The notes under the pieces were generated by a model, which made no database searches, was not told where the DNA came from, and saw only the letters and a list, made by a program, of their open reading frames with translations. Shown piece after piece: positions 6,036 through 45,366 of a DNA stretch of 64,000 bases. Origin of the DNA: Octopus vulgaris (Eukaryota); assembly GCA_951406725.2 (NCBI GenBank), contig OX597831.1:1860001-1924000 (forward strand), written 5' to 3'. The stretch's first letter is position 1, and each line of letters begins with the position of its first letter. A program made the position numbers and the translations under genes.

Positions 6036-6554
6036 CATTATTGATACTACTACTACTACTTTCTTCTTTTTGCAAATTAAACTGCTTCATTAATTAACAT
6101 ATGCTCGTTCACATCAGCTTGTTTATGTGTTGGATCCGAGATCAATGAACCATCAGAGACAACGTGATTAATGATGTGTGATGATTGAAGGATTTGCAAA
6201 AAGATGGTTTTATTAACAGAAAAATGTAGAAACTGCTGAAAATTCTCAGCAACATTTTTTACTTCTGCTGTTGCTAACCAATATTAACATTAACTGTTTG
6301 TGCTCATTACTAATGTAAATACTAATGATTTACTAATTAACTGCTTCAATACTTTAACATATACTAACCATGGTGATAGGTTTGTGTGGACATGTATTTA
6401 TATATATGTAAATTTTAATTTAGAGTATCTAAGAGATACCACCACGCTGGAAATAGCAGTCAAAACTTGACTCTAAAACCACATTAAATGTTCATACAGC
6501 ACCAGGAGAGAAGACAAAGAGACAAAATAAACTAGCAAAAAAATTACTGGATAA

Positions 6555-6611
6555 TTCCAGTTCCTGGATTTCTGGCTCTTCATAAGAAATGCTCTGCCTT
6601 CATCAGTGGAA
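6555..6611 (-). ncRNA. Hammerhead motif, family 1 left arm, probably inactive
   Basis: Reverse complement ttccaCTGATGAaggc...gccaGAAAtccaggaACtggaa. The U of the NUH triplet is mutated to A. Confidence 0.6.
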
Positions 6612-6751
6612 TATACTCAGATAGCACATAAATAGAAATATATATATATATATACAACATACGATATACTTACATACACAAATGTATGTATACATTCGTG
6701 TATGTATATATATATATATATATATTTGTATTTATGTGCTTTCTGAGTATA

Positions 6752-6808
6752 TTCCACTGATGAAGGCAGAGCATTTCTTATGCAGAGCCAGAAATCCGGG
6801 ATCTGGAA
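6752..6808 (+). ncRNA. Type I hammerhead ribozyme motif, family 1 (right arm of fold-back 6551-6810)
   Basis: TTCCA-CTGATGA-a-GGC...GCC-a-GAAA-tccggg-ATC-TGGAA. Stem I is ttcca/tggaa, stem III is short, cleavage triplet AUC. Confidence 0.75.
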
Positions 6809-7095
6809 ATATAAGTCTGAGATGACTGCATGAAATGATTTAAGCCAGCCTTAGGCAAACAGTAGCCCATGGGACCTTCTGAATGACATGCTGAAATGTC
6901 TTTAGTGGTGCAGCCCACCTGATGATGAACCATATCTCATACAGCTCACTTCTTGAGAAAGATTGCTTGTGCTTGATTTAAGCCATAACTGGGTGGGGAT
7001 TCCAGAAAAAAGCACTTCTGGTGAGAAAAAGTTGGAAAGATACTTAACTCGTCATTTGGTTTATACCATCACCTGGTCCTTGATTGCCTTTAGTG

Positions 7096-7324
7096 CAGTG
7101 TTTCTTAACCATTTTTTGCCTATAGACCCTTTTTTACTCTACTGGATCTTATTTTACTCTACTGGATCCCCCATATTTGTTATAATTAAATATTGTTAGG
7201 ACTTGTATTTAAAAATGCTATTAAAATATTTTGTGTAGAGTAGAAGTGTAACCAATTTATTGCAAATAAATTTTTAACAACAAAACTTTATACGGACCAT
7301 ATGGCCCTCAGTTGAGAACTACTG
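7096..7324. mobile_element. hAT-type MITE with an 8-bp TSD
   Basis: Ends CAGTGTTTCTTAAC / GTTGAGAACTACTG, flanked on both sides by CTTTAGTG. Confidence 0.8.
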
Positions 7325-8281
7325 CTTTAGTGGAATCCACTCTGATGCAAGCATTCAAGCCAGGTTTCCAGTTTCAGAACTTCATCACTTTCTCCTACCA
7401 ATCTTAATGGCCCTGAAAAAAAAAACGAAAACAAGGTTATGAGTTCTTCCCTCCTCTCTGCTTTAAAGGTAACCAAAGTGGTTTGAGGACAAGGGATAAG
7501 GTGGTCAAGCACAATAGGGATATTACACAGAGTGGTGGAAATGTTTGGGGGATGAGGTAGTTAGATCATGCTTGGGCAACTAAAATGGAGCAAGGGGTTC
7601 GTTCACATTATGCAGGGGTTTTTTTTAGGAGCAGCACTTTTCATGTATGTTATTGTGATTTTATGAGGATGGAAGTAGGGGCTTTCAAACTCAAGACCCT
7701 ACCTCCTCCCCAGGAGACACAAACTCTAGGTATACCACCACATCAACCCCTTCTCATGTCTCTAGTTCCAGACAGACTAGATTTTGCTATGTCCTCCATG
7801 CTACCTTACTAACAACCTCACCCTTATACTTACTATACCTTCTCCATCACTAATTTGTTTTTTCTAACAATCAACCAAGAATAATTCCAATCTTACAATC
7901 ACTTTTTTCCAGAAAATAAAACCAGGCACAAGAAGTTTCCAGGAAAATTTCAAATTTTTATTCATTGCCTATGTTATAAGAATTTAGAAATTCAAGAGAC
8001 AAGAAATAATTCCTTTTTCAATGGTGAAATGATTCATTCTCTGTGTGTTATCCTATGTACTCTTTTACTTCTTTCAGTCATTTGACTGTGGCCTTGCTGG
8101 AGCACTGCCTTTAATCCAGCAAATCAACCCCAGGACTTATTCTTTTGAAGCCTAGTACTTATTCTATCGGTCTCCTTTGCTGAACCGCTAAGTTACGGGG
8201 ACGTAAACACACCAGCATCGGTTGTCAAGTGATGTTGGTGGGGACAAACACAGACACACAAACATATACACATACATACAT

Positions 8282-8333
<52 letters not shown>

Positions 8334-8726
8334 GACGGGCTTCTTTCAGTTTCTGCCTACCAAATCCACTCACAAGGCTTTGGTCGGATCGAGGCTGAGC
8401 TGGCAGAATCGTTAGCACGTCGGGTGAAATGCTTAGCGTTATTTCGTCTGCCGCTACGTTCTGAGTTCGAATTCCGCCGAGGTCGACTTTGCCTTTCATC
8501 CTTTCGGGGTCGATAAATAAAGTACCAGTTTCGTACTGGGGTCGTTGTAATCGACTTAATCCCTTTGTCTGTCCTTATTTGTCCCCTCTGTGTTTAGCCC
8601 CTTGTGGGCAATAAAGAAATATATAGAAGACACTTGCCCAAGGTGCCACGCAGTGGGACTGAATCCAAAACCATGTGGTTTGTAAGCAAGCTACTTACCA
8701 CACAGCCACTCCTACATCTATAAAAA

Positions 8727-8832
8727 AAAATATGGAACACTTCACAAATCTGCGAGTCATCCTTGCGGAGGGGTCATACTAATCTTCTCAGTATCATTCC
8801 AATTTTAGAATATGTACCGCTGTAACTAGTAC
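8727..8832 (-). pseudogene. RNU6: U6 snRNA pseudogene (full length, diverged)
   Basis: Reverse complement aligns by eye with U6 along its length (...CTAAAATTGGAATGATACTGAGAAGATTAGTATGACCCC...GTTCCATATTTT). ACAGAGA box is ACTGAGA and the AGC triad is AGT. Confidence 0.9.
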
Positions 8833-9654
8833 TTTTTATGCACTTTTGGTTACTTTTTCTGATGTGTTGTAGTGCACCTGAGCATTGTATATGATAAGTT
8901 CATTATTATCATAAATAATACTAAGGTGGCAAACTGACGGAATTGTTAGCCTGCAAGGCACAATGTTTAGCAGCATTTCGTCCATCTTTACGTTCTGAGT
9001 TCAAATCCTGCCAAGATCAACTTTGCCTTTCATCCTTCTGGGGTTGATAAAATAAGTACCAGCTGAGCACTGGGGGTTGATGTAATCAACTTTCCCCCTC
9101 CCTCAAAATTGCTGGCCTCGTGCCAAAATTCAAAACCACTATTATAATTAACAGTATGCTTTTACTACTGAAAGGGATTTTTTAACCCAACATTCTACAT
9201 GCTATTATTTATAGCTTTATCTACTTCGAGATCCACCATTAAAAAGGAATTATTTGTTGGTTTTATTTAATATTGTCTATAGTTTTTGAATTTAAATGTG
9301 TTTTTGTTTTTGTGTTTACTTATGTGTATGTTTGTATGTGTGTTAATGTGGTAAGTAAAAGTGTGCCGTTTACCTCACCAAAATCAAGAAGTATAAGTAC
9401 TGAGCAGATTCAATGGATCATTTTCACTGGATAAATTCATAGGACTCTGTCCCAGTACTGCTGGACAACTGCTAATATTGCTGGACAACTTTTATCTGCT
9501 ACTCATATATTTATGGTTTTAAGTACTGTATGTCCATGAGAGATATTATCTACTGATGAATACCACAGTTAATTTGCATTAAGTATAATATGCAGATAGC
9601 TATTTTATTCTACTACTGCTTCTGTTGCATATAATACATTATTATTATTATTAT

Positions 9655-10170
9655 TGAGTGAGAGAGCAGTGCATGCCATCAAAGTGACCCTGGGGTAAAA
9701 TATACGAAGCCCAGTATACCTATTATGACTACCCGTCTGAGAAGGGTACACTAGGCACATGCATCACAACCATATGTGTGTGACATGGTGATCTCATATC
9801 AAGATAAACAGCACATGACCTTGCAGGTGGGGCCCAGTTAGAATTTTCTTCTGGTCGAGTAACCCATCCCGTTCAAAAGGTCCCTGAATAAGGGTTGTTT
9901 AAGGATGTTGAATGAAACACCCATGTTTTCAGAGGTGAATTATTCAAACCCCAAAGAATCCCTCTCAACACATGGCTATGATGCTCCCCCACTACTTCTG
10001 CTTGTGACCAGAGATGCACATATCGTCAGCCACTAAGGGACATGCTCAACTGGTTAAGGTCAAACAACTGACAAGCAAATCTGTGGTATTGAGCAGAATA
10101 TTTGCTGTAGCCCATCTTTTATACCAAGACAAAACAATGTACATGATGCTCCCCCACTACTTCTGCTTGT
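9655..10170. repeat. Interspersed repeat inserted in (ATT)n, partial second copy at 10697-10905
   Basis: Both copies begin gagtgagagagcagtgcatgccatcaaagtgac immediately after (ATT)n. Confidence 0.65.
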
Positions 10171-11169
10171 GATTATTTGTTATTATCAAGATGGCAAGCT
10201 GGCAGAATTGTTAGCATGCCAGACAAAATACTTAGCAGTATTTCATGTCTTTACAATCTGGGATCAACTTTGCCTTTCGTCCTTTTGAGGTTGATAGATT
10301 AAGTACCTTTCATCTTTTCAGGGTCAATGAAATAACTACACTGGAGTTGTTGTAATCAACTATCCCCCTCCCCCAAAATTTCAGACCTTGAGCCTTTTGT
10401 AGAAAGGATTATTATTATTATTACTATTATTATTATTATTAAGGCGAAAAGCATACTGAATGTTTAGCTGCATTTCGTCCCTCTTTACGTTCTGAGTTCA
10501 AATCCTGCCAAGATCAACTTTGCCTTTCATCCTTTCGGGGTCAATTAAAATAAGTACCAGTTGAGTACTGGGGTCGATGTAATTGACTAACACTCTCTAC
10601 CAAACTTGCTGTCCTTGGGCCAAAATTTGAAATCATCATCATTATTATTATTACTATTATTATTATTATTATTATCATTATTATTATTATTATTATTGAG
10701 TGAGAGAGCAGTGCATGCCATCAAAGTGACACTGGGGTAAAATATACGAAGCCCAGTATACCCATCATGACTACCTGTCTGATAAGGGTACACTAGGCAC
10801 ATGCATCACAACTATATGTGCGCGGCATGGTGATCTCATAACAAGATAAACAGCGCATGACCTTGTGGGTGGGGCCCAGTTAGAATTTTCTTCTGGTTGG
10901 GTAACCCTATTATTATTATTATTATCATTATTATTATTATTATTATTGATTCTCAGTGGTACAAGGCCTTGAGTTCTTTATTTTAACAGTGGTTTACTAA
11001 TGAATAAACTAACACTTTAGTATGTGTTTGCATGTGAGGGATTTAAACCAAAATGAGCAAAGAGAAATAACTCAGATTGGCCAGTGGCATGTTGTTGAAT
11101 GTGGCTGACAAATACAAGTGTATATTAGTTACAATTGACGGATATTTGTCCTCATCTCGTTTGTTGTTA

Positions 11170-11213
11170 ACATAACGTTTCAGCTGATATACCCTCCAGC
11201 CTTCATCAGGTGT
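11170..11213 (-). ncRNA. Minimal type I hammerhead ribozyme motif, family 2 (inverted arm)
   Basis: Reverse complement acacCTGATGAaggctggagggtatatcagctGAAAcgTTatgt, with palindromic AACGTT at stem III. Confidence 0.7.
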
Positions 11214-11388
11214 CTTGGGGAAATTTCGAACCCGGGTTTTCATTCCTAAGGGCATATGGCATAGTGGTTAAGAGCGTGGGCTATTAACCCCAAGATTCTG
11301 AGTTCAATTTCAGGCAGTGACCTGAATAATAATAATAATATCGAAAAAAACCTTAGGAATGAGAACCCATGTTCAAAATTTCCCCAAG

Positions 11389-11432
11389 ACACCTGATGAA
11401 GGCTGGAGGGTATACCAGCCGAAACATTGTGT
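11389..11432 (+). ncRNA. Minimal type I hammerhead ribozyme motif, family 2
   Basis: ACAC-CTGATGA-a-GGCTGG-agggtata-CCAGCC-GAAA-ca-TT-GTGT, with a perfect 6-bp stem II and stem I acac/gtgt. Confidence 0.75.
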
Positions 11433-12618
11433 TAACAACAAACAAGATGAGGACAAATATCCATCAATTGTAAATAATGTACATAATTCCTCATCTCTTA
11501 AATATAGAACTGTAAATACAAGTAAGTATATCAAATACCAGACAATATAAATTTTTCATTTATTAAAATTACCTCCACCTATGTGTGTCTGTGTGTGTTT
11601 GTATATATGTGGCAATATGTATACCCATTGATGTACAGAAAACTCGAGAAACAATACTCAATACAGGAAGTAGAGTATAATATTTCCTTATTAAGAGCTG
11701 AAACTGTCTCATTACAGCAGTCAAGAAGATACCAGTCGACTAAAGAAACCCAAATCTATCAGCTCAACTTCGTCCACATCCAGTTGTAACGGGTAACTAT
11801 TTGAGTTATTGCCTCTATTTCTTTTTTCTTTTACTTGTTTCAGCCATTTGATTATGGCCATGTTGGAGCACCACCTTGGAGACTCTTTTAAGCAAATGAA
11901 TCAACCCAGTACTTATTTATTCTATCAGTCTCTTTTGCCAAACCACTAAGTTACAGTGACCTTAGCACATCAGCACTGGCTGTCAAGCACACACACACAC
12001 ACACACACACATATACATACATATATGACTGGTTTCTTTCAGTTTCCATCTGTAAAATCCATTCACAAGGCTTTGGTCAACCCTGAGACTATAGTAGAAG
12101 ACACTTGCCCAAGGTGCCACGCAGTGGAAGTGAACACAGAACCATGTGGTTGAGAAGCAAGCTTCTTACCACACAGCCATGCCTGTTTATTTATTTTTAT
12201 TGATGATGAGAATTCTCTTGTGTATTATTACTAAATTCCATGAGTCACTAGGAGTTAGTTTGAACCATGCCATCACAGAGACTTTTTCTCTGAGCACTGA
12301 TAGAACTTGATCACTTGGTTACATCAACATCATATTTGATTAAAGATTTTAAATCCAAAAGAGCACACCCAGTAACAAGGGTCAATCAACAGTTACTTGC
12401 TATGAAGGTTATTTTATTTTAAATCTAGCACTCTAAGACTCAACCAGTGTCTATTTTTTTGTATATTGATCTAGACTTCCTTCTGTCTATTTATCTACCC
12501 AACCACCTATCTACATCTTCACTATCTATCTATCTATCTGTCTACCTATCCATCCACCCATTCATCCATCTCTATCTATCTATCTATCTATCTATCCATC
12601 TGTCTGTCTATCTATCTG

Positions 12619-12688
<70 letters not shown>

Positions 12689-14283: not shown

Positions 14284-14359
14284 TTTTGAAACAGGAACTG
14301 ACCAGAAAAAAACAAATGAAGTTTTTGTGACAAATTCAAAAATATCAAAAATTCCTCAG
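14284..14359 (+). CDS. Small internal coding exon containing SKIP
   Basis: ctcctttcAG acceptor and GTAAAA donor. (S)FETGTDQKKTNEVFVTNSKISKIPQ, phase 2 to 0, compatible with both neighbouring exons. Confidence 0.65.
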
Positions 14360-15217
14360 GTAAAATCATTTCACTTTTGTTTTTTTAGACACTTCTTGAA
14401 GGAAATAATCTGGGGATGTTTACACAACTATGTTTGTGTTAGTGTGTGCAATGCACATGTGCACACATACGCATGCACTCACACATGCATACAAAGATGT
14501 GTAAACATATCACAGACAGAAGAGAAGTTTACATAAACCAGATGCAACAATTCCGGTTGGTAACATTTACATGTTATTCAGCCTAACAAAATCCCTTGTC
14601 CTGTTTTATGAGGGAGAAACCTTTTGATGACAGCTGCTAAGAGTTTTCAAACACTTCCAAAATTTAGTCTGTTTCAGATATCTCAAGGGCGACTATAAAC
14701 AGTAAATGCTATCTGGCTATGCCACTTCCCTAATTCTTATTAATAGTAGGTAGCTTACATATTGAAAACTGTTAGGCTGGAATTTTGAAAAAATTTTTTA
14801 CGAGGGACTCATCGATGGTGGTGAGTCTATAACGGGTGGGATGCTGTGTTTAGTTCCAAGGCAGAATTTACAAGTACTGAGAAAAATATAAAATCTTTAA
14901 TTTTACAAATTTGTAAGGCTTTTTTTTTATCTTTAACATGTTTCAGTCATTAGACTGTGGCCATGTTGGAGCACTGCCTTGAAGGGTTTTAGTCAAACAA
15001 ATTGACCCCAGTACTGATTTTTTTAAAGTCTACTACTTATTCTATTTATCTTATTCACTAAACTGCTAAGATATGGGGACACAAAAAAACCAACACTAGT
15101 TATCAAGCAACGGTGGAGACACACACATACAGATATTCTTTCAGTTTCCATTTACCAGATCCATTCACAAATCTTTGGTTGGCTTGGGGTTATAGTTGAA
15201 GATACTTGCCCTAGGTT

Positions 15218-15425
15218 CCTTGCAGTGGAGCTGAATCATGTGGTTGGTGACTTTTTACCACACAGCCGTGCTTACACCTTTCTGGTCCCTTGCAGTGGAG
15301 CTGAATCATGTGGTTGGTGACTTTTTACCACACAGCCGTGCTTACACCTTTCTGGTCCCTTGCAGTGGAGCTGAATCATGTGGTTGGTGACTTTTTACCA
15401 CACAGCCGTGCTTACACCTTTCTGG
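15218..15425 (+). repeat. Three tandem 70-bp units
   Basis: tgcagtggag recurs at 15221, 15291 and 15361 with essentially identical units covering a SINE head and its flank. Confidence 0.9.
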
Positions 15426-15484: not shown

Positions 15485-16200
15485 AAGAGTCAGCTGAGAA
15501 GTTCATAGGTTGACCAAAATACTCTCATGAAATATGACCAAATGAAATTTATTTTTCAACATAGTCCCCCTTGCAGTCCACACATTTCTTCCATCAGTGT
15601 TACAGTGCTTGGATCCCATTGGTGAAGAAGCTTTCATCTTGTTGGTCAAAAACATCATCAACAGCAGATATGACGTCATCATTCCTTCTTCTCAAGCCAC
15701 GCCTGGCTCACAGGGCTAGTTTCCCAGTTTCCTTGGCGTATAGGTTCCCCACCTGGACGGGATGCCGGTCCGTCGAAGGTGAGCTGCAAGATGCAGGAGG
15801 AAAGAGTGAGACAAAGTTGTGGCGAAAGAGTCAGCAGAAGTTCACCATTACCTTCTGCCGGAGCCGTGTGAAGCTTAGGTGTTTCGCTCATAAACACACA
15901 CATCACCCGGTCTGAGATTCGAACCCGCGATCCCTCGACCTTGAGTCTGCTGCTCTAACCACTAGGCCATGTGCCTCCATTTCATCATTGTTGCAATACT
16001 GGTTTCTAGCCAAGTGGGGTTTTTTCATATTGGGGAATAAATGAGAGTCAGGGAGGGTGATCAACCAGTTCAAAGCAACAGTTTATGCACAAAACCAGCA
16101 AAACCAAAGACGTGTGTGCTGGAGAATTATCCTGATAAAACAAGACTGCTTTCTTCAGTTTTCCTGTGTGTTTAGCCTTGATAGCCTGTCTCAACATTGC
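15485..16200. mobile_element. Mariner-like fragment interrupted by a SINE (about 15690-15980)
   Basis: Terminus gagtcagctgagaagttcatagg..ttttcaacatagtcccc resembles mariner ends; recognised by eye only. Confidence 0.4.
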
Positions 16201-17521
16201 AATGTCACTGTCCTACAAGCTGTGTCATTTGTTTCTAATTTTCCATGGAAACATGTCCAGCCATTATCTATTTCGAAGCAGTAGGATGGTTGGTCCCAGG
16301 AAGAGCATCTAGCTGTAGAAATTTGCCTCAATGAATCCCATCTGGCCTATGCAAGTCTGGAAAAGTGAACATTGAAATGATAATGACGATGCCAGAGAAA
16401 TAATTAACCCATTACAGGTTATAATTCAAGTACAAATATTATTTATACATTTTTACATTTACTTAGTTCCTAAGGACTCTTTGATTGTATTTCTCCTGTT
16501 ATATTATTTATTTTTATTTTATATAACAAAAGAAACACAAAAGTCTTTATAGTGTTATTTATATTAGATTTAAAAGCTCTGTTCTAAAAATGAGACACTG
16601 ACTATTAATGGGTTAATGAGTTGGAAGTGAAGATCAGCTTTTAGACCTAGCTGCATCTGTCCACAGTTGTTGTTGCTTAGACCTGTGAACAAAGGCATCA
16701 CGTCTGTGACAATACCTTCTTTAATAGAGGAGCATATATAAATATACACAGAGTTCAGACTTGGGGAGAGATAGGCTCTGCCTAGTTTAGAACAAATAAG
16801 ACCCACCATATTCCACAATCACAACACCTTCAAGAGTTAACACACATATGTATGTATATATATATATGCACTCACACACACACTTTATTTAATCCCCTCA
16901 TAGTCTGCCATAATCTACTTTGGTCCATAATTATCTACTGGGTTTCACAGCATTGAGCAGATGAGTGACATATCTCCAGGAGAGGTGGTCAGTCTGTTAT
17001 TGATAAGTTTTCACATGGGCAGAAAATAAACTCAGAACTCCGAGCTGACAAATTTAACAGCAGTTTCACTGTGCTGCCACTGCTTCCTGTACTGTTCTTG
17101 TTTAGCCCCAGGTCAGCCCCAATCCAACATATCTAATGATCAAATAGCCGTGACCGTCCCATTATTCTGTATATCTAGGAATGCGTTTTATGTTGTATTT
17201 CTTTTTTTCTGAAGTAAGGGTTTGATTTGAGGGAGAGTTGGCTGTTTATCTTAGCTGGTTGAGCTACTGTAGCATAGAGGTTCTCTTGGGTTAACCTTCG
17301 TAAACCTACTTAGCCCCCATAGGTAAACAATCCAAGTAAATTATTGGTTTTTAGAGAAGTTGTCATGTATTGAGGTAAGAAATAAATATTTCACTGCTTT
17401 CTTGTGCTTTTGTGTTTCCACAATCTTTTAAATTCTTTTATTATTTTTAATGTTGTTGTTGTTGTTTTTGTTGTTGCTTTCTCTTTGAAATAAAACAGTT
17501 ATTTCTCTTGTGCTTTCACAG

Positions 17522-18532
17522 CGGGATTCAGCAAGAACAAGGGTCTTGCTGTCTTCTGAAAAGGGGAAACCTCAACTACAGGAGGATCCGTCAAGACACA
17601 AGGACACAGCAGGGAAATTATCTTTCCCACCCAGCAGTCCCAACATCCCTAACAATAATTTCGACAGGGCTTCCATTTCCTCAAAGCCCCCTTCAGCTGA
17701 GATACTTATTAATTTCTCCCCAAATAGCAAGAATGGCAATGTGGATGAACCTCAGCCTACAGGAAGGAATCCATTCCGTTCTGGGAATTCTCAAATCCCT
17801 TCTCCATTGCAGAAGTCTCCTCCTTCCCAGATTCCTTCAGCACAGGTGACAGTCAATAAAGCTGGTCAACAAAATATTGCCAAAAACCACTCTCAGATCC
17901 GTGTGCCATCACAGATCCCATCTCTGCCACAAAATATGTCACCCACCCAGATCCCTACGCTCTCACAAAATTTGCCCCCAAGCAATATCCCTACTCCATC
18001 ACAGAGCTCCCCTCCCTCTCAAATCCCTTCTCTTTCACAAAATTCCCCTCCTTCTCTGATCCCTGCACCATCACAAAGCTCCTCTTCTACTCAAATCCCT
18101 GCATTTTCTCAGATACCCTCTCCCACATCAAATTCCAAAAATCCCTTTTACAATTCCAAAAACAGGGCTACAAACCCTTTTGCTAATGAAGACAACCAGA
18201 AAAGTCTTCCAAGATCTAAGAATCCGTTCGTCAGTCTGGCAAATGAGGAATCACAAAAGTCTAAGCTACCAGTTCTGAACACAACCAAACCTCAAGACCT
18301 TAATATTTCGGATAACCCTTCTCCTAAGAATTCTGACATGAATAGCCCAATAACAGCTGAACTTGATTCTATTGTCGCCACCCTTACCACTGCTGGAGAC
18401 AACAAGATGATGCCACCACCATCATCTTCCTCATCGGAGCCACAGAAAACTTCTGTTCACTCATCCGAGAGTTCTTCCGCTCCTCCCCCTGTCAGTCGAA
18501 TCGCCAAGCCTGCCAGTGATGTGGTTATCCAT
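17522..18532 (+). CDS. Large Ser/Pro-rich coding exon with 12-aa SxIP repeats and four NPF motifs
   Basis: Lies within the 406-aa ORF 17510-18730. tgctttcacAG acceptor, canonical GTAAGT donor at 18533, 1011 nt, phase 0 to 0. Confidence 0.85.
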
Positions 18533-20292
18533 GTAAGTTTCCTCATATCCATTCAGGTTGTCAAGTCTTTTCCAAACTGCTATGTTCATTTTCCACCCCC
18601 CTCAACTTCCTTCTTTTCCTTTCCTTATTCATTTGTACACTTCCTTGTCTTACCATTTTGTAGCATGGTTCTTCTAACGATAACATATAGCACTATTTCA
18701 CTCTTGTTCCAATTGTCTATTTCTAACTAACATGTCTCCAATTAAAACTAGCTGTAGCCTCCCTGTGCTGGTTATCTCCTTCCCTAATATTTATTAACCT
18801 ATTAAACAATTTACTCATCCAATGCCTGTGCATCTTGCTCTCCTTTCAACATTCTCACCCTCTTAATTAAACATTTGCTAATTTGCTCTACATAATGTTG
18901 TCTATGTCGTTATTGTTGTTGATATTGTTTAGCTCCAGTCAAACCCACACCAAGCAGACTTCTGGTCAAAAGCATCCCAACCATAACCTTCAAATTCTTT
19001 TGGTGGTGAGGGTGTTATTTAGGACTAATGTGTGGTCTTGCTTTCTTTTTTTTTAAGATGATGGGATGTGATTTAAGAGAGATTTGGCTGCTATCTAGCA
19101 GATCCAACAATCACAAAGAGGTTTTCATCTTTGGCTCTCCTGTTGCTTGTTGACTTTTTCCTTCTTGGAGGCATCTAACAAATTTGATTTGTTACATAGC
19201 TGACAAGGAGGAGAGAGAGAGAGAGAGAGATTTTTAGAACTGGAATGTTGTAGTACTGGAATGCATTAATGTATTGTTATGACACTGTTGTTGTGCTGCT
19301 GTAATGTGTTGTTGTGTTGGAATGTTTCGTTATTAATGTAGTACTGTATTGTGAGATGAATGAATTAAACCTTTGCATTCATAACATTTGTGTGGGGGAT
19401 AACATGACAAAAAAAAAAAACTTGAAAATCAGATTAGCAAGATAATTAGAAACTCCTGTTCAGAATAGAAACAAAAATGTTAAAATAGCAAAAAACATAA
19501 CAGAGAAGAGAAATCCCATACTGGTGGTGTTTAAGAAACTTCCTGTAATAGACAAAAGAACCATTGAAAAACCATTGTGGAAAGTTGGGGTAATCAAAGA
19601 GCTATTTATTTGTAATATTAAAGCAATAAACACTCTGACTTTGGTATAAATTTGGTAGGGTATCTCTTTCGGGTGTGAGTGTAACCCTTTTGATACCAAC
19701 TCACCCATGACCACCTCTGCTTCTATGATTCAAATTCTATTTGCTAAAGTGATCTGAATTAAAATCTTTCATTAAAATTCCATGTTAATTTATGTTCTAA
19801 ACATGAGGTTAATCCTTTTGATACTAATCTGCCTGAGACACACACACATACATGAGAGGCTTCTTTCAGTTTCCCTCTACCAAATCCACTCACAAGGCTT
19901 TTCCTCGGCTTACAACCAAGTTCCATTCTGACTGACCAGTCATAAGTCAATCTGGTCGTAAGTCACATTGGTCATAAGTCGAGAAGGTGTAATTGAAACA
20001 AAGGCAGTGTAGTTCAACAGAAATATGATAACAAAAGATTGAATATCCTTATATCTGATATATATTATCCGTCTGTTATATGGTGCTGTGGAAGTTAAGA
20101 ACATTAAAAGCATACATTTGGTTAAAAAAAGCTTCAGAGTTCAAACCCAGTTAAAGGATATGGCATTTGTTTAGGCATAGGGCATGTGAGAAGAGAGAAT
20201 TTAAGGAACAAATATGGGGGAATAGAAATATAATAGATGAAGTTAATATTTTGGAAAATGTTAAATATTTCTGTTTACTGATGCTCAAGGAA

Positions 20293-26660: not shown

Positions 26661-26928
26661 AATGGTTTCCAACTTTGGCACAAGGCCAGCAATTTTAGGG
26701 TGGGGGTTAAGTCAGTTATATTATTTTATCGACCCCAAAATGATGAAAGGTAAAGTCAAACTTAACAGAATTTGAGCTGAATTAAATTCTGCTAAGTACT
26801 TAGCCCAGTGCACTAATGATTGTGCCAGTTTGTCAATTAAATAATAATATTAATTGTTATAGTAATTGTGATAATAATGTTGATGATGACAATAAACTAA
26901 AAATTGTTTGTGTATGTTTATTTGACAG

Positions 26929-27114
26929 GAGACCTCATTCACTGGAACGAAGTGTGTGACTCGTAAAACCTCTACATCCAGTTCTAAGAGTTTACCTTGC
27001 AGGACAGCGTTGGTGAACCATAATATTCCACGAACACATTCAGCATCCACTTCACAAGATGCCAACTCACATTTCAAAGGCCAAAAGCGAACCACTCTGA
27101 CAACAGAATTGTGA
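26929..27114 (+). CDS. Terminal coding exon ending ...KRTTLTTEL-stop (class I PDZ-binding-like C-terminus)
   Basis: tttgacAG acceptor. Phase-0 open frame ETSFTGTKCVTRK...TTEL, TGA at 27112-27114, in frame with the 17522 exon. Confidence 0.75.
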   Translation, partial: ETSFTGTKCVTRKTSTSSSKSLPCRTALVNHNIPRTHSASTSQDANSHFKGQKRTTLTTEL

Positions 27115-33310: not shown

Positions 33311-34229
33311 TACTGCACGGTTGTTTGTTTGTTTTTGTCTATTATGGTAACTAACTCTTTTATCTTCTACTTATTTGCTTCAGTCATTAGACTGCAGCCA
33401 TGCTGGAGCACCAACTAGAATGGTTTAGTCAAACAAATGGTCCTACAGAACTATTATATAGTTCTATATTCTGATGGTCTCTTTTTATTGAACTGCTCAG
33501 TTATGGGGATACAAACCAAAACAAGTTGTCTGGTTGTGGAGGGAGACAAACACACACACACTCATAGATATCTATGTGTATGTGTGTATTATATATATAT
33601 ATGTAATGTGTAGTTGTGTGTGTGTGTGTATATATATATCATCATCGTTTAGCGTCCGCTTTCCATGCTATCATGGGTTGGACGGTTCAACTGGGGTCTG
33701 GAAAGCCAGAAGGCTGCACCAGGCCCAGTCTGATCTGGCAATGTTTCTACGGCTGGATGCCCTTCCTAACGCCAACCACTCCATGAGTGTAGTGGGTGCT
33801 TTTTACGTGCCAGAAGAGTCTGGCAAATGGCCACGATCGGATGGTTTTCCTTTTTATGTGCCACCGGCACAAGGGCCAAGCGAGGCTGGCAACGGCCACG
33901 AACGGATGGTGCTTTCTACATGCCACCGGTACAAGGCTAGTCGGGGCGGCGCTGGCAATGGCCACGTTCGGATGGTATATATATATATAATGTATGCATG
34001 TATACAATATATATAAAATGTATGTATGTATATAAATATGGGCTTTCAGTTTCTATCAAATCCACTCATGAAACATTGGTCACCCTGAGGCTATTGAAGA
34101 TGCTTGCCCAAGGTGCCATGCAGTAGAAGTGAGCCCAGAGCCATGTGATTGGGAAGCAGACTTCTTATCCAGCAACCACAGAATACAACGCTAGCCAGAT
34201 TCTTACATGAAGAGCTGATGTGATGAATC

Positions 34230-35360
34230 AAACAGTGAAAAACATAAACCAAAACATAAAAATAAATATAATATACAAAAAATATAAAATTTAAAATTTT
34301 TAATTTATATTTATAAATGTTTATATTTTTTTAAATATATATATATTTTAAATATAACTATCAAAAAGTATTAAAAAGTTTATATAATATAAGTAAAACC
34401 ACTACGTACGTTTCATGGCCATAACCCAATTCGAATTAAAATTCAAATTATAATTATAGTCAATCTTCAGGTTAATGATAATAGTTAAATAAATAAGCAA
34501 ATATATTTAAACAATATTTTTTAAGAAATAAATAAAATAATAATTTTTCTTATAAAAAACTCTATTATCAAATTAGAAACTTTAATGATTAGGATTATGT
34601 CATACAATCCAATTATAATGTTAAATATTAATTTTTAAGGTAAAAATAGATAAAAAATGTATTTATCTATTAAGATATAATATGGCTTTACAAAACATAA
34701 TAAACTCACGAATAACCTAATTTCAGTTATAGTCAATATCTAATTACCAAATTATTTAACAAAAAAATAATCACTATTCATATTTTTAAATTTAAGTTCA
34801 AATCTAATATATTTAAGAATAATAACTAAATTATTATCAATAAATATAATAATTAAGATCTAAAATTTTCTCTATCAATAAATATATATACATATAATGA
34901 AAACTAAATAAATTAATTATTCCATTATTACTTACAAAATATATTAAAGAATTAAAGATGAAAAAGCAAATTATAAACGTAAAACCTATCTTAAAAAAAA
35001 ACGTTTAACTATTTAACGATCAATATATCTCGTTGGCTAATTAATAACTTACAAAAACCGTATAGTTATAATCTAATAATGAAATACATATCGTCAACAA
35101 CAAAATATTTATACAATCAAATTATCAATCCTTAGTTATATAGTATGCAATATAACATAAATTATTAAAATAACTTTAATAAAAAGGTTTACTAAGCTTT
35201 CAAAAATCGTGTCATTAACTAAACTAATAATAAACAAATGGAAAATTCTTTTAACAATGAAAATTACGAATATATTTTATCAATGAAAAATACTAATACA
35301 AATTATCAATGGAAAATGGCTATATTTAAGCTATAATAGAACAAAGTCACTATTAGAGAT
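34230..35360 (-). mobile_element. Extremely AT-rich block, probably a decayed Penelope-like retroelement 3' region
   Basis: Hammerhead near the 3' end of the - strand. Weak remnants (RYID..., ...DRFYV) resemble a GIY-YIG segment. No intact ORF. Confidence 0.35.
34399..34474 (-). ncRNA. Hammerhead ribozyme motif, family 3, at the edge of an AT-rich block
   Basis: Reverse complement ac-CTGAAGA-t-TGACTATAA...TTATGGCCA-t-GAAA-CGTACG-TA-gtgg. Palindromic ACGTACGT stem III, GUA triplet, stem I partly eroded. Confidence 0.6.
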
Positions 35361-35361: not shown

Positions 35362-35413
<52 letters not shown>

Positions 35414-38700: not shown

Positions 38701-39560
38701 TCATTTGTCTAATTTCCGCAACTTCTGTGCTGATGGTCGATTTCTGTTTTAGTTGAGAAGTATCGGGAGAGGAGGGCATGATTGGCTTTTGTTCCTGCTG
38801 ATGTACTTCAACTGGAATGATCAATTTTCGTTGTTGAAGAGCAATAGGGGAGGAAGACACAGGCAGCTTAAGTTTTTGTTTTTGTTGATGTTCTTCAACA
38901 GGAATGGCCGATTTTTGTTGCTGATGTTGAAGAGTGACAGGGGAGGAAGACATGAGAGGCTTTAACCTTTGCTGTTGTTCTTCATCAACAGGACTGGTTT
39001 TGGGAGACAAAGTACTCGGGTTTTTGCTGTTCAGCAGCAATGGCAGTGGAAGACACGGTTGTCGGATTTTGCTGTTGCTGTTCAGCAGCAATGGTAGCAG
39101 GGGACACACAAGTCAGGCACTGAAACGACCAGTTTTGTAGCTGGACCATTTCCCAGAGTTTATACATCATAGAAGTATGGTGTCCTTTCTCTTGACCTGG
39201 TATCTTTTGAAAGTTTGTGGCACATTGAAAGCAGATCGAAACACGACATTTACTGCATTCAACCCATCTATTTCAGAAGGAATTTTCGAGTCTTGTGCAT
39301 AGATGACAGATGTGATTTGTCGGGCAACGTTCTATTTTAGGACAGCGACCAGTTTTGTTGCACAGCTCATCCACGGATGATACCGTGGCAGTTTTGTTCT
39401 GTCTGCCCATCCGTACCGTAGTACAAGGTAAACAAAGAAAAAAAATGTGAAGATATAGCACACTTGTTAGGGAAATAAATAAGATGTTTTTATTTTTTGT
39501 TGTTATTGTTGTTAACTGTTTCCGCTTTCCTCATTGTATGTGTGTATACAAGATGCAATT
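35745..39560 (-). mobile_element. Near full-length degenerate CR1-clade LINE (PHD-like ORF1, APE, RT)
   Basis: ORF1 has CHLC..WVECSKC..CFQC..WSFQCLTC, a Gln-rich region and a coiled coil (38382-39410). APE start NAHSLCNK..ETW (37623-38042), RT C-terminus (36163-36372), 3' end homologous to 2188-3091. A SINE is inserted at about 37077-37310. Confidence 0.85.
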
Positions 39561-41170
39561 ATAATAATAATAATAATAAAACATTGTGTACAGTGCTCAG
39601 ATGCACTACAACTCATCTAAAGTGTATGTATAAAGTGTAATGTACAAGCGTCAGGAAAAGAACAGTGCATGAGTCATGACATACACATATGTGTATGAGT
39701 ATGGAAGGGGGACAATCAGGTGTAGTTTCGGCGGATTTCGGAAAGCATGAGGGCCTTAAAGGATGCAGTGTCATGGCAGTCAACAACTGACACAGGCAGT
39801 TTGTTCCATGCTTCAGCAACTCTGAGCGTGAAAAAATGTTTCCGAAAGTCATGGGAGCTGTGCTGCTATCTGACTTTGTAGGCATGTCCACGTGTGTTGA
39901 ACAACATGGAGATCAAAAAGGTGTTCAGTGTTGTTGTTGGTGAGGTGGTTGATAACTTTGTGGGTGTTTACCAAGTCCATCGCCAGACGCTGGAGCTTCA
40001 GTCAATCCATGCCCAGGGAAACAAGGCGCTCAGAGTATGGTAGGTGTCTGATGGAGGGTATGCGTTTGGTTGCACGTCTCTGAACAGATTCCAGGAGGTC
40101 AATGTTCTGAGCAAGATAGGGGTTCCAAACTGATGATGCGAATTCCAAGTGTGGTCATACCATAGCTGTATACAGCTTTAAATAGATGGCTGGAGAGCGG
40201 CTAACAAAAGTCTTGTTGAGTGATGCCAAGACACCCTCGGCCTTCTTGACAATTTTAGAGATATGCTTTGTCCAACGCAAATCACTGCTGACAGGTAGAG
40301 AGCACTCAGACCAGCTGGTATCTCTCTTCGACGTTTCACCAGTCTTAACAAATCTCCAGATTTGTCCATCCTCACGAAGACTGAAACTCTCTTGCAGAAC
40401 TGAGTTCCGGTTCAGGGAAATCGCTGCATGTAGCTTCGGACGTACATCGGGTGGTAAGCCTGGGCGTGTTCGGAAGGTAGTTCGATTTTCACGCCCAGCT
40501 TTAACTGAGGCCAGATGGTATGAGGTTGCCTCAGCGTGGTCTGAAAAAGACAGCTTGATGAGCCTGGATTTTGGGCCAGGTCGTCCAAGGCAGAGAGCAC
40601 CCGTTGGGGAACGCAGCCTAGGTCTTTGGCTGAGTTGGCAGCAAATGCCTGAAGATCAGCCATGTCTTCTGGTACTACAATGGCAATAACTTCGTGGGTA
40701 GCAGAATCCGCGGTCTTCTCAGTGTTTTTAGATGCAGCAAGAGGTACAGGGAGGTTCTTTAGCAGAGCTTTCGGATAAGACCCTTCATTGTGGTGTCCTA
40801 CCTGAATGCTTGCTTTTATTCCTGCTACTTCCCCTCTTAAAGCACAAATCGATTGTTGCAGTTCTGCAAGAATCGCACTGGTCAATTGGTGTTGTTGATG
40901 TTGTTGTTGCTGCTGCTGCTCTAGTTGTGGTTGATTTTGTTGTTGCTGCTGTTGTTGTTGATGTTGTTGCTGCTGTTGTTGTTGTTGCTGCTGCTGCTGC
41001 TCTAGTTGTGGTTGATTATGTGTGCAATCAAGAGATGTAAGGAGTCAATGGTTGGTGTGTTTATAATGTTCGCACTTGTTAGGGAGATAAATAAATAATA
41101 TCTTATTTTTCGTTGTTAACTGTTCCCGCTTTCCTCATTGTATGTGTGAATGAAAAAAGATACAATTATA
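39561..41170 (-). mobile_element. Second CR1 copy with a large internal deletion, head-to-tail with the previous copy
   Basis: 5'UTR matches 39461-39560. ORF1 remnant 40280-41015 is joined directly to the RT C-terminus near 40272. (TTA)n tail at 39561. Confidence 0.8.
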
Positions 41171-42595
41171 TATATAATCAAGAGATGTAAGGATAAAATG
41201 GTTGTTGTGTTTATAATGTGCGCACGATACTCACTGCACTGCCTCAGCGAAGAAGAAGAAAGTATGATTTAAAATCGCTTTGTGTATATATTCAGGTGTG
41301 GTGCGTGCTGATATATAAAACTGTGTGTATGGTTTTTCTAGAATTCGGAATGTACTTACAATTATCCTTACGAAGTAGAATGGTGTGTTTTCAATCGTGG
41401 TTGCTACACGTGGTAACACAAAGATTTAAAACGAGGAGATTAACAGGAGACACACAGTTATTTTCTTTTTGTAGAATCATTAAAGGTACTGTTCCATTAC
41501 CCAAGGAATGAGTTGTGTACTTACTTATTAAGTTGTGTCAGAGGGAAATACAATTCTCCTTACGAAGTAGAATGGCGTGTTTTCAATCGTGGTTGCTACA
41601 CGTGGTTACACAGAGATTTACGACAAGGAGACACACAGTTATTTTCTTTATGTAGAATCATTAAAGGTTCTGTTCCATTATCCAAGGAATGTGTTGTGTA
41701 CTTATTAAGTTTTGTGTGAGGGAAATATCAGGTTTTCAGGTCTTCTCTCTCTCTCCACCTGTCATTACTTGTCTGCTTCTTAGCACAGTGGCCAAAGTAC
41801 GTGTCGTCTCAGCACAGCACACTGGACATTAATCTAGTTTCAGCTCACGAGGTGTGGCCATATGTCTATGTTTGTTATGTAATTATATGATCGAATTTTT
41901 TAAAAAACTGAAACAGTATGTCTCTATTGCTACCTAACACATAAAAATTATATATTTCATACTGTTTTTAATATTTTGAATTTTAATAAATTCTGTAACG
42001 TGACCGAAAATTTAGATGTAAGGGAGATCACTGAGAAAGTGGAAAACAAAAAGAAGATTTTTCCAGGGAGGTTACTCTGTTTTACTATATTCCTAAAAGA
42101 CTGATTTTGATTTTTAAACGTGTGCGCTTGTGTGTGTGAGTCTGTGAACGCGTGCGCGCAACTGTCGAATTATCTAAGTATACATGCATACATCGAAGTA
42201 TCTAAGTATACATGCTGTGTGGTAAGTAGCTTGCTTACCAACCACATGGTTCCAGGTTCAGTGCCACTGCGTGACACCTTGAGCAAGTGTCTTCTACTAT
42301 AGCCTCGGACTATTGCCTTTCATCCTTTCGGGGTTGATAAATAAAGTACCGGTTACGCACTGGGTCGATGTAATCGACTTAATCCCTTTGTTTGTCTGCT
42401 CTATGTTTAGCCCCTTGTGGGCAATAAAGAAATATATATATATATATGTGTGTGTGTATGTGTAATATAATATAATTACGATTCAGTTAAATTAGGTTCT
42501 TAAATTGAGGCACCAAGCCAATTCGGTATAGTCCGTGCAGCTGGAAATTAGGTGAACAAAATGCAAATAAGCAACAAGGAAATTCAGGTATCAGT

Positions 42596-42680
42596 GCATT
42601 AAGGCTGTTTCCAGCAGCTTCATTTAATCAATCAATGAAAACATTACATCAATATGAAAGAAGCTGCTCTCCTCAGACGC
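42596..42680 (-). ncRNA. Hammerhead motif, family 4 left arm (stem III degenerate)
   Basis: Reverse complement gcgtCTGAGGAgAGCAGC...GCTGCTgGAAAcagcctTAatgc. Confidence 0.65.
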
Positions 42681-42738
42681 AGATGACCATATAGATTTCC
42701 AACATAAAGGATTAACCATTTTTAACATTTATAGCAAA

Positions 42739-43195
42739 CTAGCAGCATAGCCCGGCGTTGCCCGGGTATGTAAGAGCACCTAGTAGGCAACGACTAATCC
42801 CAATCTAGTCCTTTCCCTCTAGGGAACGAAGGCACATGTGTAGGTTGCAATGTCTTCTCTTCACTCGAATACTTCTGTGTATACGATGTTCCTAGCTGTC
42901 CCTTTGGGCGAAAACATGAAAACATCATTGCACCTCCCAACGCGTGAACAGCCCACGTACAGCCCAGAAAATGTGTTGCAAATACAAAGCTTAGATTCTC
43001 GATCCCATGTCGAATTTATCGATTTTTTCAGAACTGGGGGAACTTTTCAAAATTTTTGCTGCGTTAGTTTTGAATTATGACATTGGGCTATGTGTGTATC
43101 AAGTTTCATCAGAATCGGTTGAAAGCCGTGGTCAGGGTGAGGGTACAACCTGACAGACACACAGACAGACAAACTGCCGTTTATATAGAGAGAGA
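42739..43195 (-). mobile_element. Non-autonomous Helitron
   Basis: The - strand starts TC and ends CTAG, with a subterminal CCCGGgcaacgCCGGG hairpin. Inserted at an A|T site with no TSD; the empty site can be reconstructed from the opposite arm of the host palindrome. Confidence 0.85.
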
Positions 43196-43367
43196 TTTAT
43201 ATTAGTGCTAGAAACCAAAATAATTACATTGTTTCCTTATGTTATAGTTCTGCCCCGAATGTAACATAAGGAAACAAAGTAATTACTTTGGTGTCTAGTA
43301 CTGATATAAATTTACTATAAATGCTAAAATGGTCCATCTTTTATGTTGGAAATCTATATGGTCATTT

Positions 43368-43453
43368 GCGTCTGAGGAGAGTGGCTTCTTTCAAATTGAT
43401 GCAATGTTTTCATTGATTGGTTAAAATGCAGCCACTTGAAACGGCCGTAATGT
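43368..43453 (+). ncRNA. Type I hammerhead ribozyme motif, family 4 right arm
   Basis: GCGT-CTGAGGA-GAGTGGC...GCCACTT-GAAA-CGGCCG-TA-ATGT. 7-bp stem II, palindromic ACGGCCGT stem III, GUA triplet. Confidence 0.8.
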
Positions 43454-45366
43454 ATTGATACCTGGACATCCTTGTTATTTATTTGCATGTGTGTGTGTGT
43501 GTGTGCACATGCATACATATATATGAATGATTAAGAAAGATAGAAGATACGGGATTGTTTATTAATCACCACTATTGCTTCCGCTTATCTAGCATTGATC
43601 CCTCATGGGTGGGACATTTAACAACTCGTTTAGGAGTATCCATCGGTGTGGATGTGCCTCTTCAGCGGATAAGATGTATCTTGTTAAGATAATGACTGTT
43701 CCACATATCTTCTCAGTTTGTGTATAGAAAAGCAGAAAATTAAGGGATACAGCTTCATTATTATATAAAATCAATAATAAATAATAGATGCAACAAGAAA
43801 CGAATACACAATACAGTAAAAAATGTATTAAATATAACCATTAACAGATATGGATGTATAAACACCCTCTCTTAGGTTGTATGGTGCATGTACACTTGCT
43901 CCTACAAACATCCACCAAGATATAATCATACACTCACACAGCGAATTAAATAGCTACTTAGTGTTTATAAGAATGAGGAAGTTAGAGTTAAATTTAAGGT
44001 AAATTATGATTATTGGTTTGGCTAATGGTTACTTATTCTTTCCCACTGCATTGAGTGAAAGTCCATTTATAACTATGTAAGCATCTTGAGAGTCTTTCAG
44101 AAATTCTATTAATGATCTCATTGGTCCACAAAATAGACAGAGATTTCTCAGAGCAGAGTCTGCATCTCCTGGAATGGTCCCTTGTCATCCCCTCAGTGAA
44201 GCTCAATATCTGAGGATCCTTTCTCACCACTTCGTCCCACATCTTCTTGGGTCTACCCCTTCCTCAGGTTCCCTTCACAATTGGGATTTGAGAGAGATTT
44301 GGCTTCTATTTCTAGCAGGTTGAGTTAGTAGCATAGCTGGGGTGGGGTTAGAGGGGATGGTGGAGGTGGCTGTTTACTTTGGGTAACACTTTTATGAGTG
44401 CAACACATTTGTGTCAGCTGTATAAGCCTGTATAGGGTTGTATGAGTTGCTAATGCAAGGGCTTCCCCTGATGGCATGCACTCTAGCCATACAACGTACA
44501 CCACTAGGTTGAGTAAACATGCCACTACTCCATCATAGGCTTATAAATATTTCAATAAATCAATTTAGTAGCTCTTGTGGTATTCATTCATCTCCCAAGG
44601 GTATTTATGAAGAAAATGAAATACAGCTTTAGCACTAAATTTTAGGAACTTACCAGGAGTTGACACAAGCAAGTTTTATTTCATTTGAAAATCAAATGTT
44701 TTAACCCTTTTGTTAACATTTCTGCTGAAATGCATTGCTTTTGTTTCAATAATTTTGAAAGCAATGAAGAATTTTGTCAAATAACTTTATCATTATTAAG
44801 CTGCTGTTTGGAACATAAATTAACATGGCCGGTATAAATTAACATAAATTAACATGGCCGGTATAAATTAACATAAATTAACATGGTTCTGTTTATGTAC
44901 AATGCTTTTGTTCCAATTAATTTTGAAAATAATAAAAAAATTAGTAAAATAATTTTGTCATTATTAAACTGGTGTTTGGAACATAAATTAACAAGAAATT
45001 TTATGAAAGTTTTAATTTAAATCGCTTTAAAACAAAATGTTTGTATTATAGAACCAAGGGTGGTCTCAGACAGGTTGGTATCAAAAGGGTTAAATATTGG
45101 TTTTGTTTGAATATGGATGTAGCATAGCCCATGCAAAGCAAAGCTTTGCAATCAGTACACATCATCCTTGTTCATCATTCTCTTCATTCATCTCTACACT
45201 CCCATCTCTAATTACTTGTTACTCTACCTCACATACTCTGAGGAACCTGTCCACCTATCCTTCCGAATCCAGTCTGTATTTTCTCTTATACTCATCTTAT
45301 TGAGAGTACTCTCTGACATCTCATCCCCACTATATTTGTCTTCCTTCCAACCACTCATCTATATAA

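Follow-up and report, generated by a model that had tools for sequence, protein, structure and literature searches.

A stretch of 64,000 nucleotides of the Octopus vulgaris genome (assembly GCA_951406725.2, contig OX597831.1, positions 1,860,001 to 1,924,000; hereafter the window, numbered from its first letter) carries seven hammerhead-ribozyme cores, six of them in pairs on opposite strands. The question raised by this locus is what kind of element brings such ribozymes in, by how many insertion events, and with what consequence for the ribozymes themselves. A first-pass annotation, made from the sequence alone, had assigned them to several non-autonomous self-cleaving families derived from Penelope-like elements (PLEs) that insert as inverted pairs. 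The derivation from PLEs was supported by linkage to open reading frames (ORFs) and by fixed ends: the four families, termed A to D, are very likely the 3′ ends (pseudo-long terminal repeats, pLTRs) of PLEs. As a whole, the best explanation is probably that these PLE ends form fold-backs in single events, that family B copies are headed by an RNA polymerase III (Pol III) promoter, and that the ribozymes decay in the copies; the PLE origin and the single-event fold-back are, as parts of it, very likely correct.

Linkage of the hammerhead families to Penelope-like elements

The window sits in a 2.8-Gb genome, in which each family returned 1,173–1,552 first-look candidates; 40 were scored and 30 loci kept, and the loci described here are the best-scoring 20–30 among hundreds to thousands of candidates. 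For family B, a reverse transcriptase (RT) ORF was found upstream in sense orientation in 2 of 29 other loci (L011 and L025). An RT query taken from B returned 6,653 candidates, of which 150 were scored and the 30 best loci examined; 18 of the 30 showed a B head and/or hammerhead downstream, and 14 an inverted 3′-end arm upstream of a truncated ORF. The B protein, with an open stretch of 569 aa in one copy (L126), resembles RVT_1/HTH_animal/GIY-YIG atlas clusters at 0.96–0.97. Its endonuclease has the CCHH residues and lacks the CX2-5CxxC Cys-rich linker, a pattern described for Penelope/Poseidon elements (PMC8557442), and by these motifs, read by eye against that source, family B most likely belongs to the Penelope/Poseidon group.

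The order of parts in B is RT, GIY-YIG and stop codon, a tRNA-like head about 60 nt past that stop, an (AAT)n linker, an ATG, the hammerhead, a short end and a tail. In the window, the first ~51 codons of the ORF (11359..11512, + strand, ATG at 11359) hold the hammerhead, the short end (~11484) and the tail, and in four loci (L144, L351, L363 and L366) the frame from 11359 passes through hammerhead and tail into the ORF. Partial tandems of B were found in L355 and L359. Seven of 29 copies bearing the ORF start begin right at the tail (L345, L347, L353, L362, L364, L365 and L369; about 1460–1503), suggesting unit-length insertions bounded by the tail; they may be likened to the Penelope form flanked by 34 bp that is mentioned in PMC2377424.

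For family C, a GIY-YIG-type ORF that has a preceding CxC..C..C motif lies 2.7 kb upstream in broken copies (L248, L249, L252 and L260), RT-like ORFs are present in L306 and L308, and by motif the family appears Neptune/Nematis-like. A fixed 5′ end of C near −900 was considered and rejected, as longer copies run on to an ORF, and an apparent downstream extension proved to be a separate common repeat. For family D, a decayed endonuclease-like match (E 1e-8) lies 1.8–2.0 kb upstream at one locus, in sequence common to other loci. Family A is non-coding, with a ~490-nt tandem unit; a head-to-tail partial unit stands upstream in 16 of 29 loci, two hammerhead regions occur in L316 and L311 only, and the family looks retrozyme-like. 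The description of the families as non-autonomous thus fits A only, whereas B and C join ORF-bearing PLEs and D has a link to an endonuclease that has decayed. The PLE-like ORFs found next to L084 and L111 were judged to be separate insertions and served as queries only. Two further PLE-like ORFs, one Neptune-like and one divergent (L244:4647-6465 and L245:4600-6290, both − strand), adjoin D and C copies and are not theirs.

Several results count against this assignment. No B end was present in range in 12 of the 30 best RT loci, a search for an RT of D found none, and no autonomous partner of A was found, with an ORF joined upstream in 0 of 29 loci. For B, Pfam gave only RVT_1, below cut-off, and for C it was blank. 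The clade labels come from motifs read by eye against PMC8557442 rather than from a tree including reference PLEs, and the choice of best-scoring loci biases the sample to younger copies. A PDB search of the B protein gave weak RT matches only (E≥0.014), and the RTs of C and B, compared with each other, showed no significant similarity (E 0.14).

Fold-backs as single insertions

The elements extend further than first described, with A starting at 6410, C spanning ~34226-35360 and D starting at ~42474. The family A fold-back (6410..6812, extents mapped on the natural copy L035) consists of a minus arm (6410-6711) reaching the short 3′ end and a plus arm (6666-6812) ending just past the hammerhead. 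Family B is bounded by target-site duplications, AAATACAAGT, at 11110..11119 and 11514..11523 (+ strand). Its inverted arm (11119..11251, − strand) is 5′-truncated and reaches the short 3′ end without the tail, and the PLE tail of ~26–28 nt (11485..11512, +) is present on the plus arm only. Family C (about 34226..35360, − strand) is a single 5′-truncated 3′ end with the AT-rich 3′ untranslated region (UTR) of a Neptune/Nematis-type PLE, and its 5′ end adjoins a (GA)n(TA)n repeat.

The family D fold-back (42474..43488) has a minus arm (42474-42738 and 43195-43249) with the long end and a plus arm (43249-43488) with the short end. The minus arm has been split by the later insertion of a dispersed repeat (42739..43195) that is unrelated to D and has 90–100% matches in L045, L185, L186, L198 and L258. 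This repeat carries a GC-rich hairpin near one end and has a look that we take to be Helitron-associated.

The arms pair at 103 of 111 positions in A (93%), 121 of 133 in B (91%) and 153 of 179 in D (85%). The first-pass statement that the elements are mostly fold-backs applies to B, with both strands represented in 20 of 29 other loci, but not to A (11/29), D (7/28) or C (~5/29). Each family has two fixed 3′ ends, one short and one long (judged by eye for C). Among the B fold-backs (n=29), 26 combine a long and a short end, three have two short ends and none has two long ends (P 0.0015); the combination is long plus short in 8 of 8 D fold-backs, and exactly one short end is present in 11 of 11 A fold-backs (scored by eye). 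The rule of one long and one short end therefore holds in 45 of 48 scored fold-backs, with no case of two long ends. Of the 29 B fold-backs, 17 lie between direct repeats of ≥7 bp, compared to 2.6% of mismatched flank pairs; target duplications were scored in B alone, the flanks of A and D being TA repeats.

Because B joins one long and one short end within a single target duplication, the fold-back represents one insertion. The proposal of insertion as inverted pairs thus survives as one insertion carrying an inverted 5′-truncated copy of its own 3′ end. A DNA-transposon reading of the fold-backs, as miniature inverted-repeat transposable elements, was rejected since the arms are unequal, 5′-truncated and continuous with RT ORFs. 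An inverted 5′-truncated copy with a tail at one end is published PLE anatomy (PMC8557442, Fig. 2 legend; PMC3846280), and dual hammerheads 100–700 bp apart on opposite strands have also been published (PMC4209133), so that fold-backs with opposite-strand hammerheads are a known PLE arrangement. In long D and C copies the inverted arms were seen up to 3–5 kb apart (L181:3336-3847 and 7049-7540, oriented; L279).

A tRNA-like head in family B

Upstream of the B hammerhead lies a 74-nt tRNA-like segment (11250..11323, + strand), overlooked in the first-pass annotation and followed by an (AAT)n linker of variable length (11324..11342, +). In order to score it, a covariance model was built from ten tRNAs of this genome, and the head was the best match to that model in the window (23.4 bits, E 1.3e-5, model positions 1-73). 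Of 29 head loci, 28 matched the same model over positions 1-73 at E<0.01, and among seven isotypes sampled tRNA-Arg was the nearest. The head also contains motifs that we take to be A-box and B-box-like.

The head stands at a fixed place in 17 of the 30 RT loci, and it is the point at which short copies start. Of the 29 head-bearing copies, 28 begin at −15 to +4 relative to the head start, and 22 of these run through the hammerhead (by eye). In loci selected by the hammerhead, 14 of 17 copies that reach the head start have their 5′ end there. Expressed per base, the rate of 5′ ends is 0.044 at the head start, 20–30 times the rates of 0.002 within the head and 0.0014 upstream. By a crude measure, DNA depth in an independent run also rises about fivefold at the head start. 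Finally, over ~2.5 kb of the ORF sense strand the column majorities show no run of four or more T, against ~5 expected (synonymous null P(0) = 0.003); four control retroelement stretches have 2–7 such runs per 0.6–0.95 kb and a fifth has 2 in 1.9 kb.

These features suggest that the B head is likely a Pol III promoter giving rise to SINE-like copies (short interspersed nuclear elements, SINEs), and it seems reasonably probable that the short B copies originate from Pol III transcripts. The short copies end in the PLE end and not in a tail derived from a long interspersed nuclear element (LINE) with poly(A) or simple repeats; they would be SINE-like in working without being a classical tRNA SINE. 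Much more tentative is a wider proposal, to which we give a distinctly smaller chance, namely that B is a coding Penelope transcribed by Pol III from a tRNA-derived pLTR promoter, with a unit of ~2.7 kb purged of terminators and 3′ ends that serve as ready-made SINEs.

In order to look for transcripts, about 6% of each of three RNA runs (related or same species) was read and mapped on an ORF-linked B copy. Between 8,774 and 12,145 reads mapped, equally in both orientations and with joints between opposite strands, which fits read-through in host transcripts. The read-end check that the first-pass annotation had proposed gave no pile-up at the B cleavage site in the three runs, although fragmented cDNA reads cannot exclude cleavage; for PAc, the PLE of Anolis carolinensis, RNA-seq read ends were likewise lacking at the cleavage site, and cleavage occurred only with protein (PMC11167929). 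Compared with the DNA run, A>G and T>C changes in the RNA reads did not exceed C>T and G>A changes, and they are not read as editing.

The Pol III interpretation meets a number of difficulties. Rfam does not detect the B head as a tRNA, and the single ORF-linked head tested (L131) matched our model weakly (E 0.48). With default settings ARAGORN reported no tRNA in the window or in six B loci, and with relaxed settings only it detected one in 1 of 4 heads. Four of 29 ORF-start copies reach the head start, two stopping there and two passing (Fisher P 0.03 compared to short copies). The T-run controls are single decayed copies, and when codons were shuffled within amino acids in one decayed ORF there was no deficit (3 runs against 3.15). 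Read starts did not pile up at the B head in the three RNA runs, and the head was not clearly enriched over the ORF in RNA compared with the DNA run. Mismatch is 8.4% in the A box, 4.3% in the B box and 4.4% elsewhere in the head, and the boxes thus show no extra conservation.

The lack of extra box conservation and the missing pile-up of read starts favor a first alternative, in which the PLE anatomy holds and the head is a passenger, for example an old SINE or tRNA copy captured by the 3′ UTR of a master. The 5′ pile-up of copies would then come from an internal Pol II start, or from an RT stop or self-priming at the palindrome TGCCC-AC-GGGCA, which lies at the same place. Precedents are available for two of these routes, since the D. 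virilis Penelope pLTR has an internal LINE-like promoter (PMC2377424) and A. vaga pLTRs begin with palindromes for which self-priming has been proposed (PMC3846280). The lack of clear diagnostic differences between short and ORF-linked B copies, which share a majority sequence, also suits a passenger. However, the copies begin exactly at model position 1, the tRNA match being full-length, the B ORF strand is free of TTTT, unlike the control stretches, and the palindrome has just ~5–7 bp; we consider a passenger head rather unlikely.

The shared majority sequence bears as well on a second alternative, in which B arose separately as a tRNA-SINE that took its tail from the PLE 3′ end, much as other SINEs use LINE ends, and was later re-inserted into the PLE. 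In its favor, tRNA-derived SINEs are known from Octopus (cited in PMC10886601 and PMC4758252), and short copies outnumber ORF-linked ones, with ORF sequence in 0 of 6 B insertions of a 400-kb genome sample. However, the head occupies one fixed place in the RT loci and the short copies carry the ORF-linked majority sequence, which makes this order of events improbable; had it happened in the distant past, the system seen today would be no different. A Pol III promoter at the head of the B pLTR is accordingly the reading we retain. Elsewhere in the window, the tRNA model found further tRNA-like heads at 26754-26834, 15891-15976 and 63726-63793 (all − strand, E 0.004–0.007), which probably represent other SINE families.

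Hammerheads probably kept in masters and decaying in copies

All seven cores listed by the first-pass annotation were found, its coordinates being the low ends of stem I, with C3 at 6606(−), 6757(+), 11209(−), 11393(+), 34470(−), 42676(−) and 43372(+). The distinctness of the four families was likewise upheld, as BLASTN showed no similarity between them. A loose type I descriptor found three motifs in the window, compared to a mean of 0.025 (maximum 1) in 40 shuffles, and a strict one found one, compared to 0 in 40 shuffles. B and C escape both descriptors because of an overly short stem III or stem I. A search with the Rfam hammerhead models, which had been recommended, gave no hammerhead among 148 window matches at E≤5.

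The type I core and the palindromes of stem III are real, but 4 of the 7 window copies deviate, and an intact family-form core with palindrome is present only in A+, C− and D+. A and B lie within a single intron of an EPB41L5-like gene, and the expectation that these two would place a sense-strand hammerhead in the host pre-mRNA was correct for both. A+ (6752..6808, CUGAUGA at 6757, GAAA UCCGGGA UC) is sense to the host and equals the family majority; its stem II, GGC/GCC, has one unpaired A on each side, a family-wide trait. In A− (6555..6611, C3 at 6606, position 17 at 6560) U16.1 is replaced by A, and this hammerhead is predicted to be dead owing to that loss. B− (11169..11214) keeps the core and AACGUU, with the first pair of stem I mismatched and a G-U at 10.1-11.1, and in B+ (11388..11433, CUGAUGA at 11393, sense to the host) the CG palindrome has decayed to CA (AACATT). 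The C hammerhead (34400..34473, − strand, CUGAAGA, C3 at 34470, GAAA CGUACG UA) has a long stem II and a stem I of just 2 bp, the latter family-wide. D− (42596..42680, C3 at 42676) has lost its stem III palindrome, and D+ (43368..43453, CUGAGGA at 43372, GAAA CGGCCG UA) is intact with an 8-bp stem II. Part of the window B words was also found in six organisms.

Among the other copies, core and majority palindrome survive together in 20/31 arms of A, 26/105 of B, 13/40 of C (leaving out the second palindrome of C) and 8/47 of D. Decay in family B falls chiefly on the CG palindrome, which has become CA or TG in 30 of the 67 arms scored, as would be consistent with CpG methylation of copies. Core columns of B decay as the flanks do (4.5% compared to 4.6–6.0% mismatch), and the fold was therefore probably maintained in masters and not in copies. 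In family C, 97% of cells pair and 36 two-sided changes were counted, compared to 4.2 in shuffles, and the palindrome shifts from CGUACG to CGAUCG (UA to AU) in 9 of 41 sequences. Three covarying pairs were found, a number not above shuffles (34/500), in related sequences. Stem covariation, which the first-pass annotation had named as a test along with core conservation, was seen for stem II and the palindrome in C and points to selection on the fold in masters. A D-related copy carries the palindrome CGATCG.

The suggestion that a ribozyme may be masked by its own antisense arm agrees with folding predictions. Pair probability for stems I and II of A+ and B+ falls from 0.75–1.0 alone to 0 in the fold-back, a predicted full masking of both intronic copies, and stem II of D+ falls from 0.99 to 0. 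The predicted stem III probability of the monomer is ~0, and predicted self-duplex energies are −9.9 kcal/mol for A+ and −14.1 kcal/mol for D+. Hammerhead cutting of the EPB41L5-like pre-mRNA is unlikely. Four active non-autonomous self-cleaving families, inserted as inverted pairs and able to cut or regulate host pre-mRNA, would suit the non-autonomous, tandem-prone A (16/29 loci), the intact sense A+ in the intron and the fold-back joints in RNA reads, but given the ORFs of B and C, cores decaying at flank rate, the few arms with core and palindrome kept, stems predicted not to form in the fold-back and the B cleavage site free of read ends, they are very improbable.

Density in the genome

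Density was sampled in 40 evenly placed 10-kb genome stretches (400 kb), which held 6 B, 2 A, 2 C and 1 D-like insertions, 11 in total. Extrapolation gives ~42,000 B insertions genome-wide (range 15,000–91,000). A generic descriptor found 8 motifs in the 400 kb, mostly of further families, and 0, 0 and 0 in shuffles, so that a chance origin of the motifs was ruled out; descriptor-grade hammerhead motifs in the octopus genome would number ~56,000 (range 24,000–110,000). At 11 insertions per 400 kb, the probability of at least four in 64 kb is 0.10, and four elements in the window are therefore unremarkable for this genome. At least four further minimal-hammerhead families occur in the sample (L289, L291, L294, L299, L302, L304 and L285), with the palindromes CG, CAATTG, CATATG, CCATGG and CGATCG; L291 shows one motif on both strands, 55 bases apart.

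Proposed mechanism

With PAc in vitro, both target strands are cut and extended, and reverse transcription proceeds from two internal RNA sites (PMC11167929). By analogy, the octopus PLE protein would cut both target strands and start reverse transcription inside the RNA at two sites, and these would become the two ends; each cut strand would prime one cDNA, and the cDNAs would be joined head to head. The template would be uncleaved RNA, as copies span the cleavage site. Because the arms overlap, either a second RNA copy or a second pass over the same one is needed, and two RNAs might, speculatively, be supplied by pairing through the palindromic stem III. Since priming is internal, a Pol III transcript would need no poly(A) and could stop at any downstream T-run. 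Pol III would fire from B 3′ ends, and the short RNAs would be copied by the PLE protein from the internal start sites. Hammerheads would be kept in masters as dimer- or protein-assisted ribozymes, and single copies, including the intronic ones, would decay neutrally, locked by the antisense arm.

Host gene and other features of the window

The host gene encodes an EPB41L5-like (band 4.1-like protein 5) product, with + strand exons at 1862-2056, 5663-5851, 11716-11793, 14285-14368, 17519-18562 and 26929-27111. The 413-aa exon product matches band 4.1-like protein 5 at 97% in Octopus vulgaris and 93% in O. bimaculoides. A (6.4–6.8 kb) and B (11.1–11.5 kb) lie between exons 5663-5851 and 11716-11793. 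The last coding exon is 26929-27111, and C and D therefore lie past the stop codon.

The intron shared by A and B also holds a full-length U6 snRNA copy (8726-8832, − strand, 92.6 bits) with several substitutions, probably a retrocopy. An unbroken 227-aa ORF of the Got1/Sft2 family at 54522-55205 (− strand, Pfam E 1.4e-29) is a single-exon gene or a retrocopy. Decayed LINE 3′ fragments, presumably CR1-like, lie in opposite orientation at 2025-2977 (+) and ~39613-40655 (−) and are ~81% alike. A local tandem and inverted repeat at 52152-52695 has ~155-nt units with open frames.

Relation to known systems and significance

Family B resembles PAc and D. virilis Penelope in its single ORF with RT and C-terminal GIY-YIG and in its two fixed ends, optional tail, inverted 5′-truncated copy and short target duplication, and it resembles PAc in a hammerhead at the pLTR-ORF junction that overlaps the first codons (PMC11167929). 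In contrast to D. virilis Penelope, B has a tRNA-like pLTR segment in place of the LINE-like internal promoter (PMC2377424), and unlike in either element its copies pile up at the start of that segment. The octopus hammerheads share with the minimal PLE hammerheads described in PMC4209133 the type I core, an extra base on the 5′ side of stem II, a stem III that is palindromic or absent, a large number of families per genome, mostly as solo copies, and opposite-strand pairs 100–700 bp apart, which that paper gives for Schistosoma; its results and discussion do not name octopus. They differ in the extra A before GAAA in A and the very long stem II of C and D. Family C is similar to the Neptune/Nematis PLEs of PMC8557442 in its C-terminal GIY-YIG after a Cys-rich linker, ends beside (TA)n, tandem and inverted structure, and tail on one end, but its 3′ UTR is ~2.7 kb, and the clade is assigned by motif.

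Like non-LTR retrozymes, A is a non-coding, AT-rich hammerhead unit with head-to-tail partial tandems (PMC7229834; 10.64898/2026.07.22.740005), and a PLE origin has been proposed in the latter, a preprint. The unit of A is larger (~490 nt compared to ~300) and mostly present as monomer or partial dimer, and A has a PLE-type minimal hammerhead, PLE ends and inversions. The SM-alpha and Sj-alpha SINEs of Schistosoma, like B, are short repeats with a Pol III promoter followed by a hammerhead; they form tandem satellites, and the review consulted in part names no autonomous partner (PMC6765202). B, in contrast, is a module within a protein-coding PLE, and its copies have PLE ends. [quoted passage not shown]

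The literature search found no PLE with a tRNA-derived pLTR and no PLE-mobilised tRNA SINE; Repbase, Dfam, SINEBase and the PMC13282606 library, which may hold B, were outside its scope. The O. vulgaris repeat annotation lists Penelope families, and ribozymes are unmentioned in the main text searched (PMC13282606). For hammerheads and fold-backs, the novelty is thus mainly the scale in the octopus, the anatomy being known, and the tRNA-headed Poseidon element with its SINE-like offspring is of greater importance.

The rule of one long and one short end provides a quantitative target for models of PLE integration, and tens of thousands of transcribed intronic hairpins of 100–300 bp in the octopus are candidate ADAR substrates. 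If the whole B unit is made by Pol III, B would be the type of autonomous parent needed for PLE-mobilised repeats that combine a tRNA with a hammerhead, such as SM-alpha, and the translation of an uncapped RNA that carries a ribozyme within its first codons would call for explanation. SINEs parasitise LINEs and Pol III TRIMs parasitise LTR elements; a tRNA-headed, PLE-mobilised short element would fill the corresponding slot for the third class. Being still attached to its autonomous parent, B would show a route for the birth of a SINE inside its host element.

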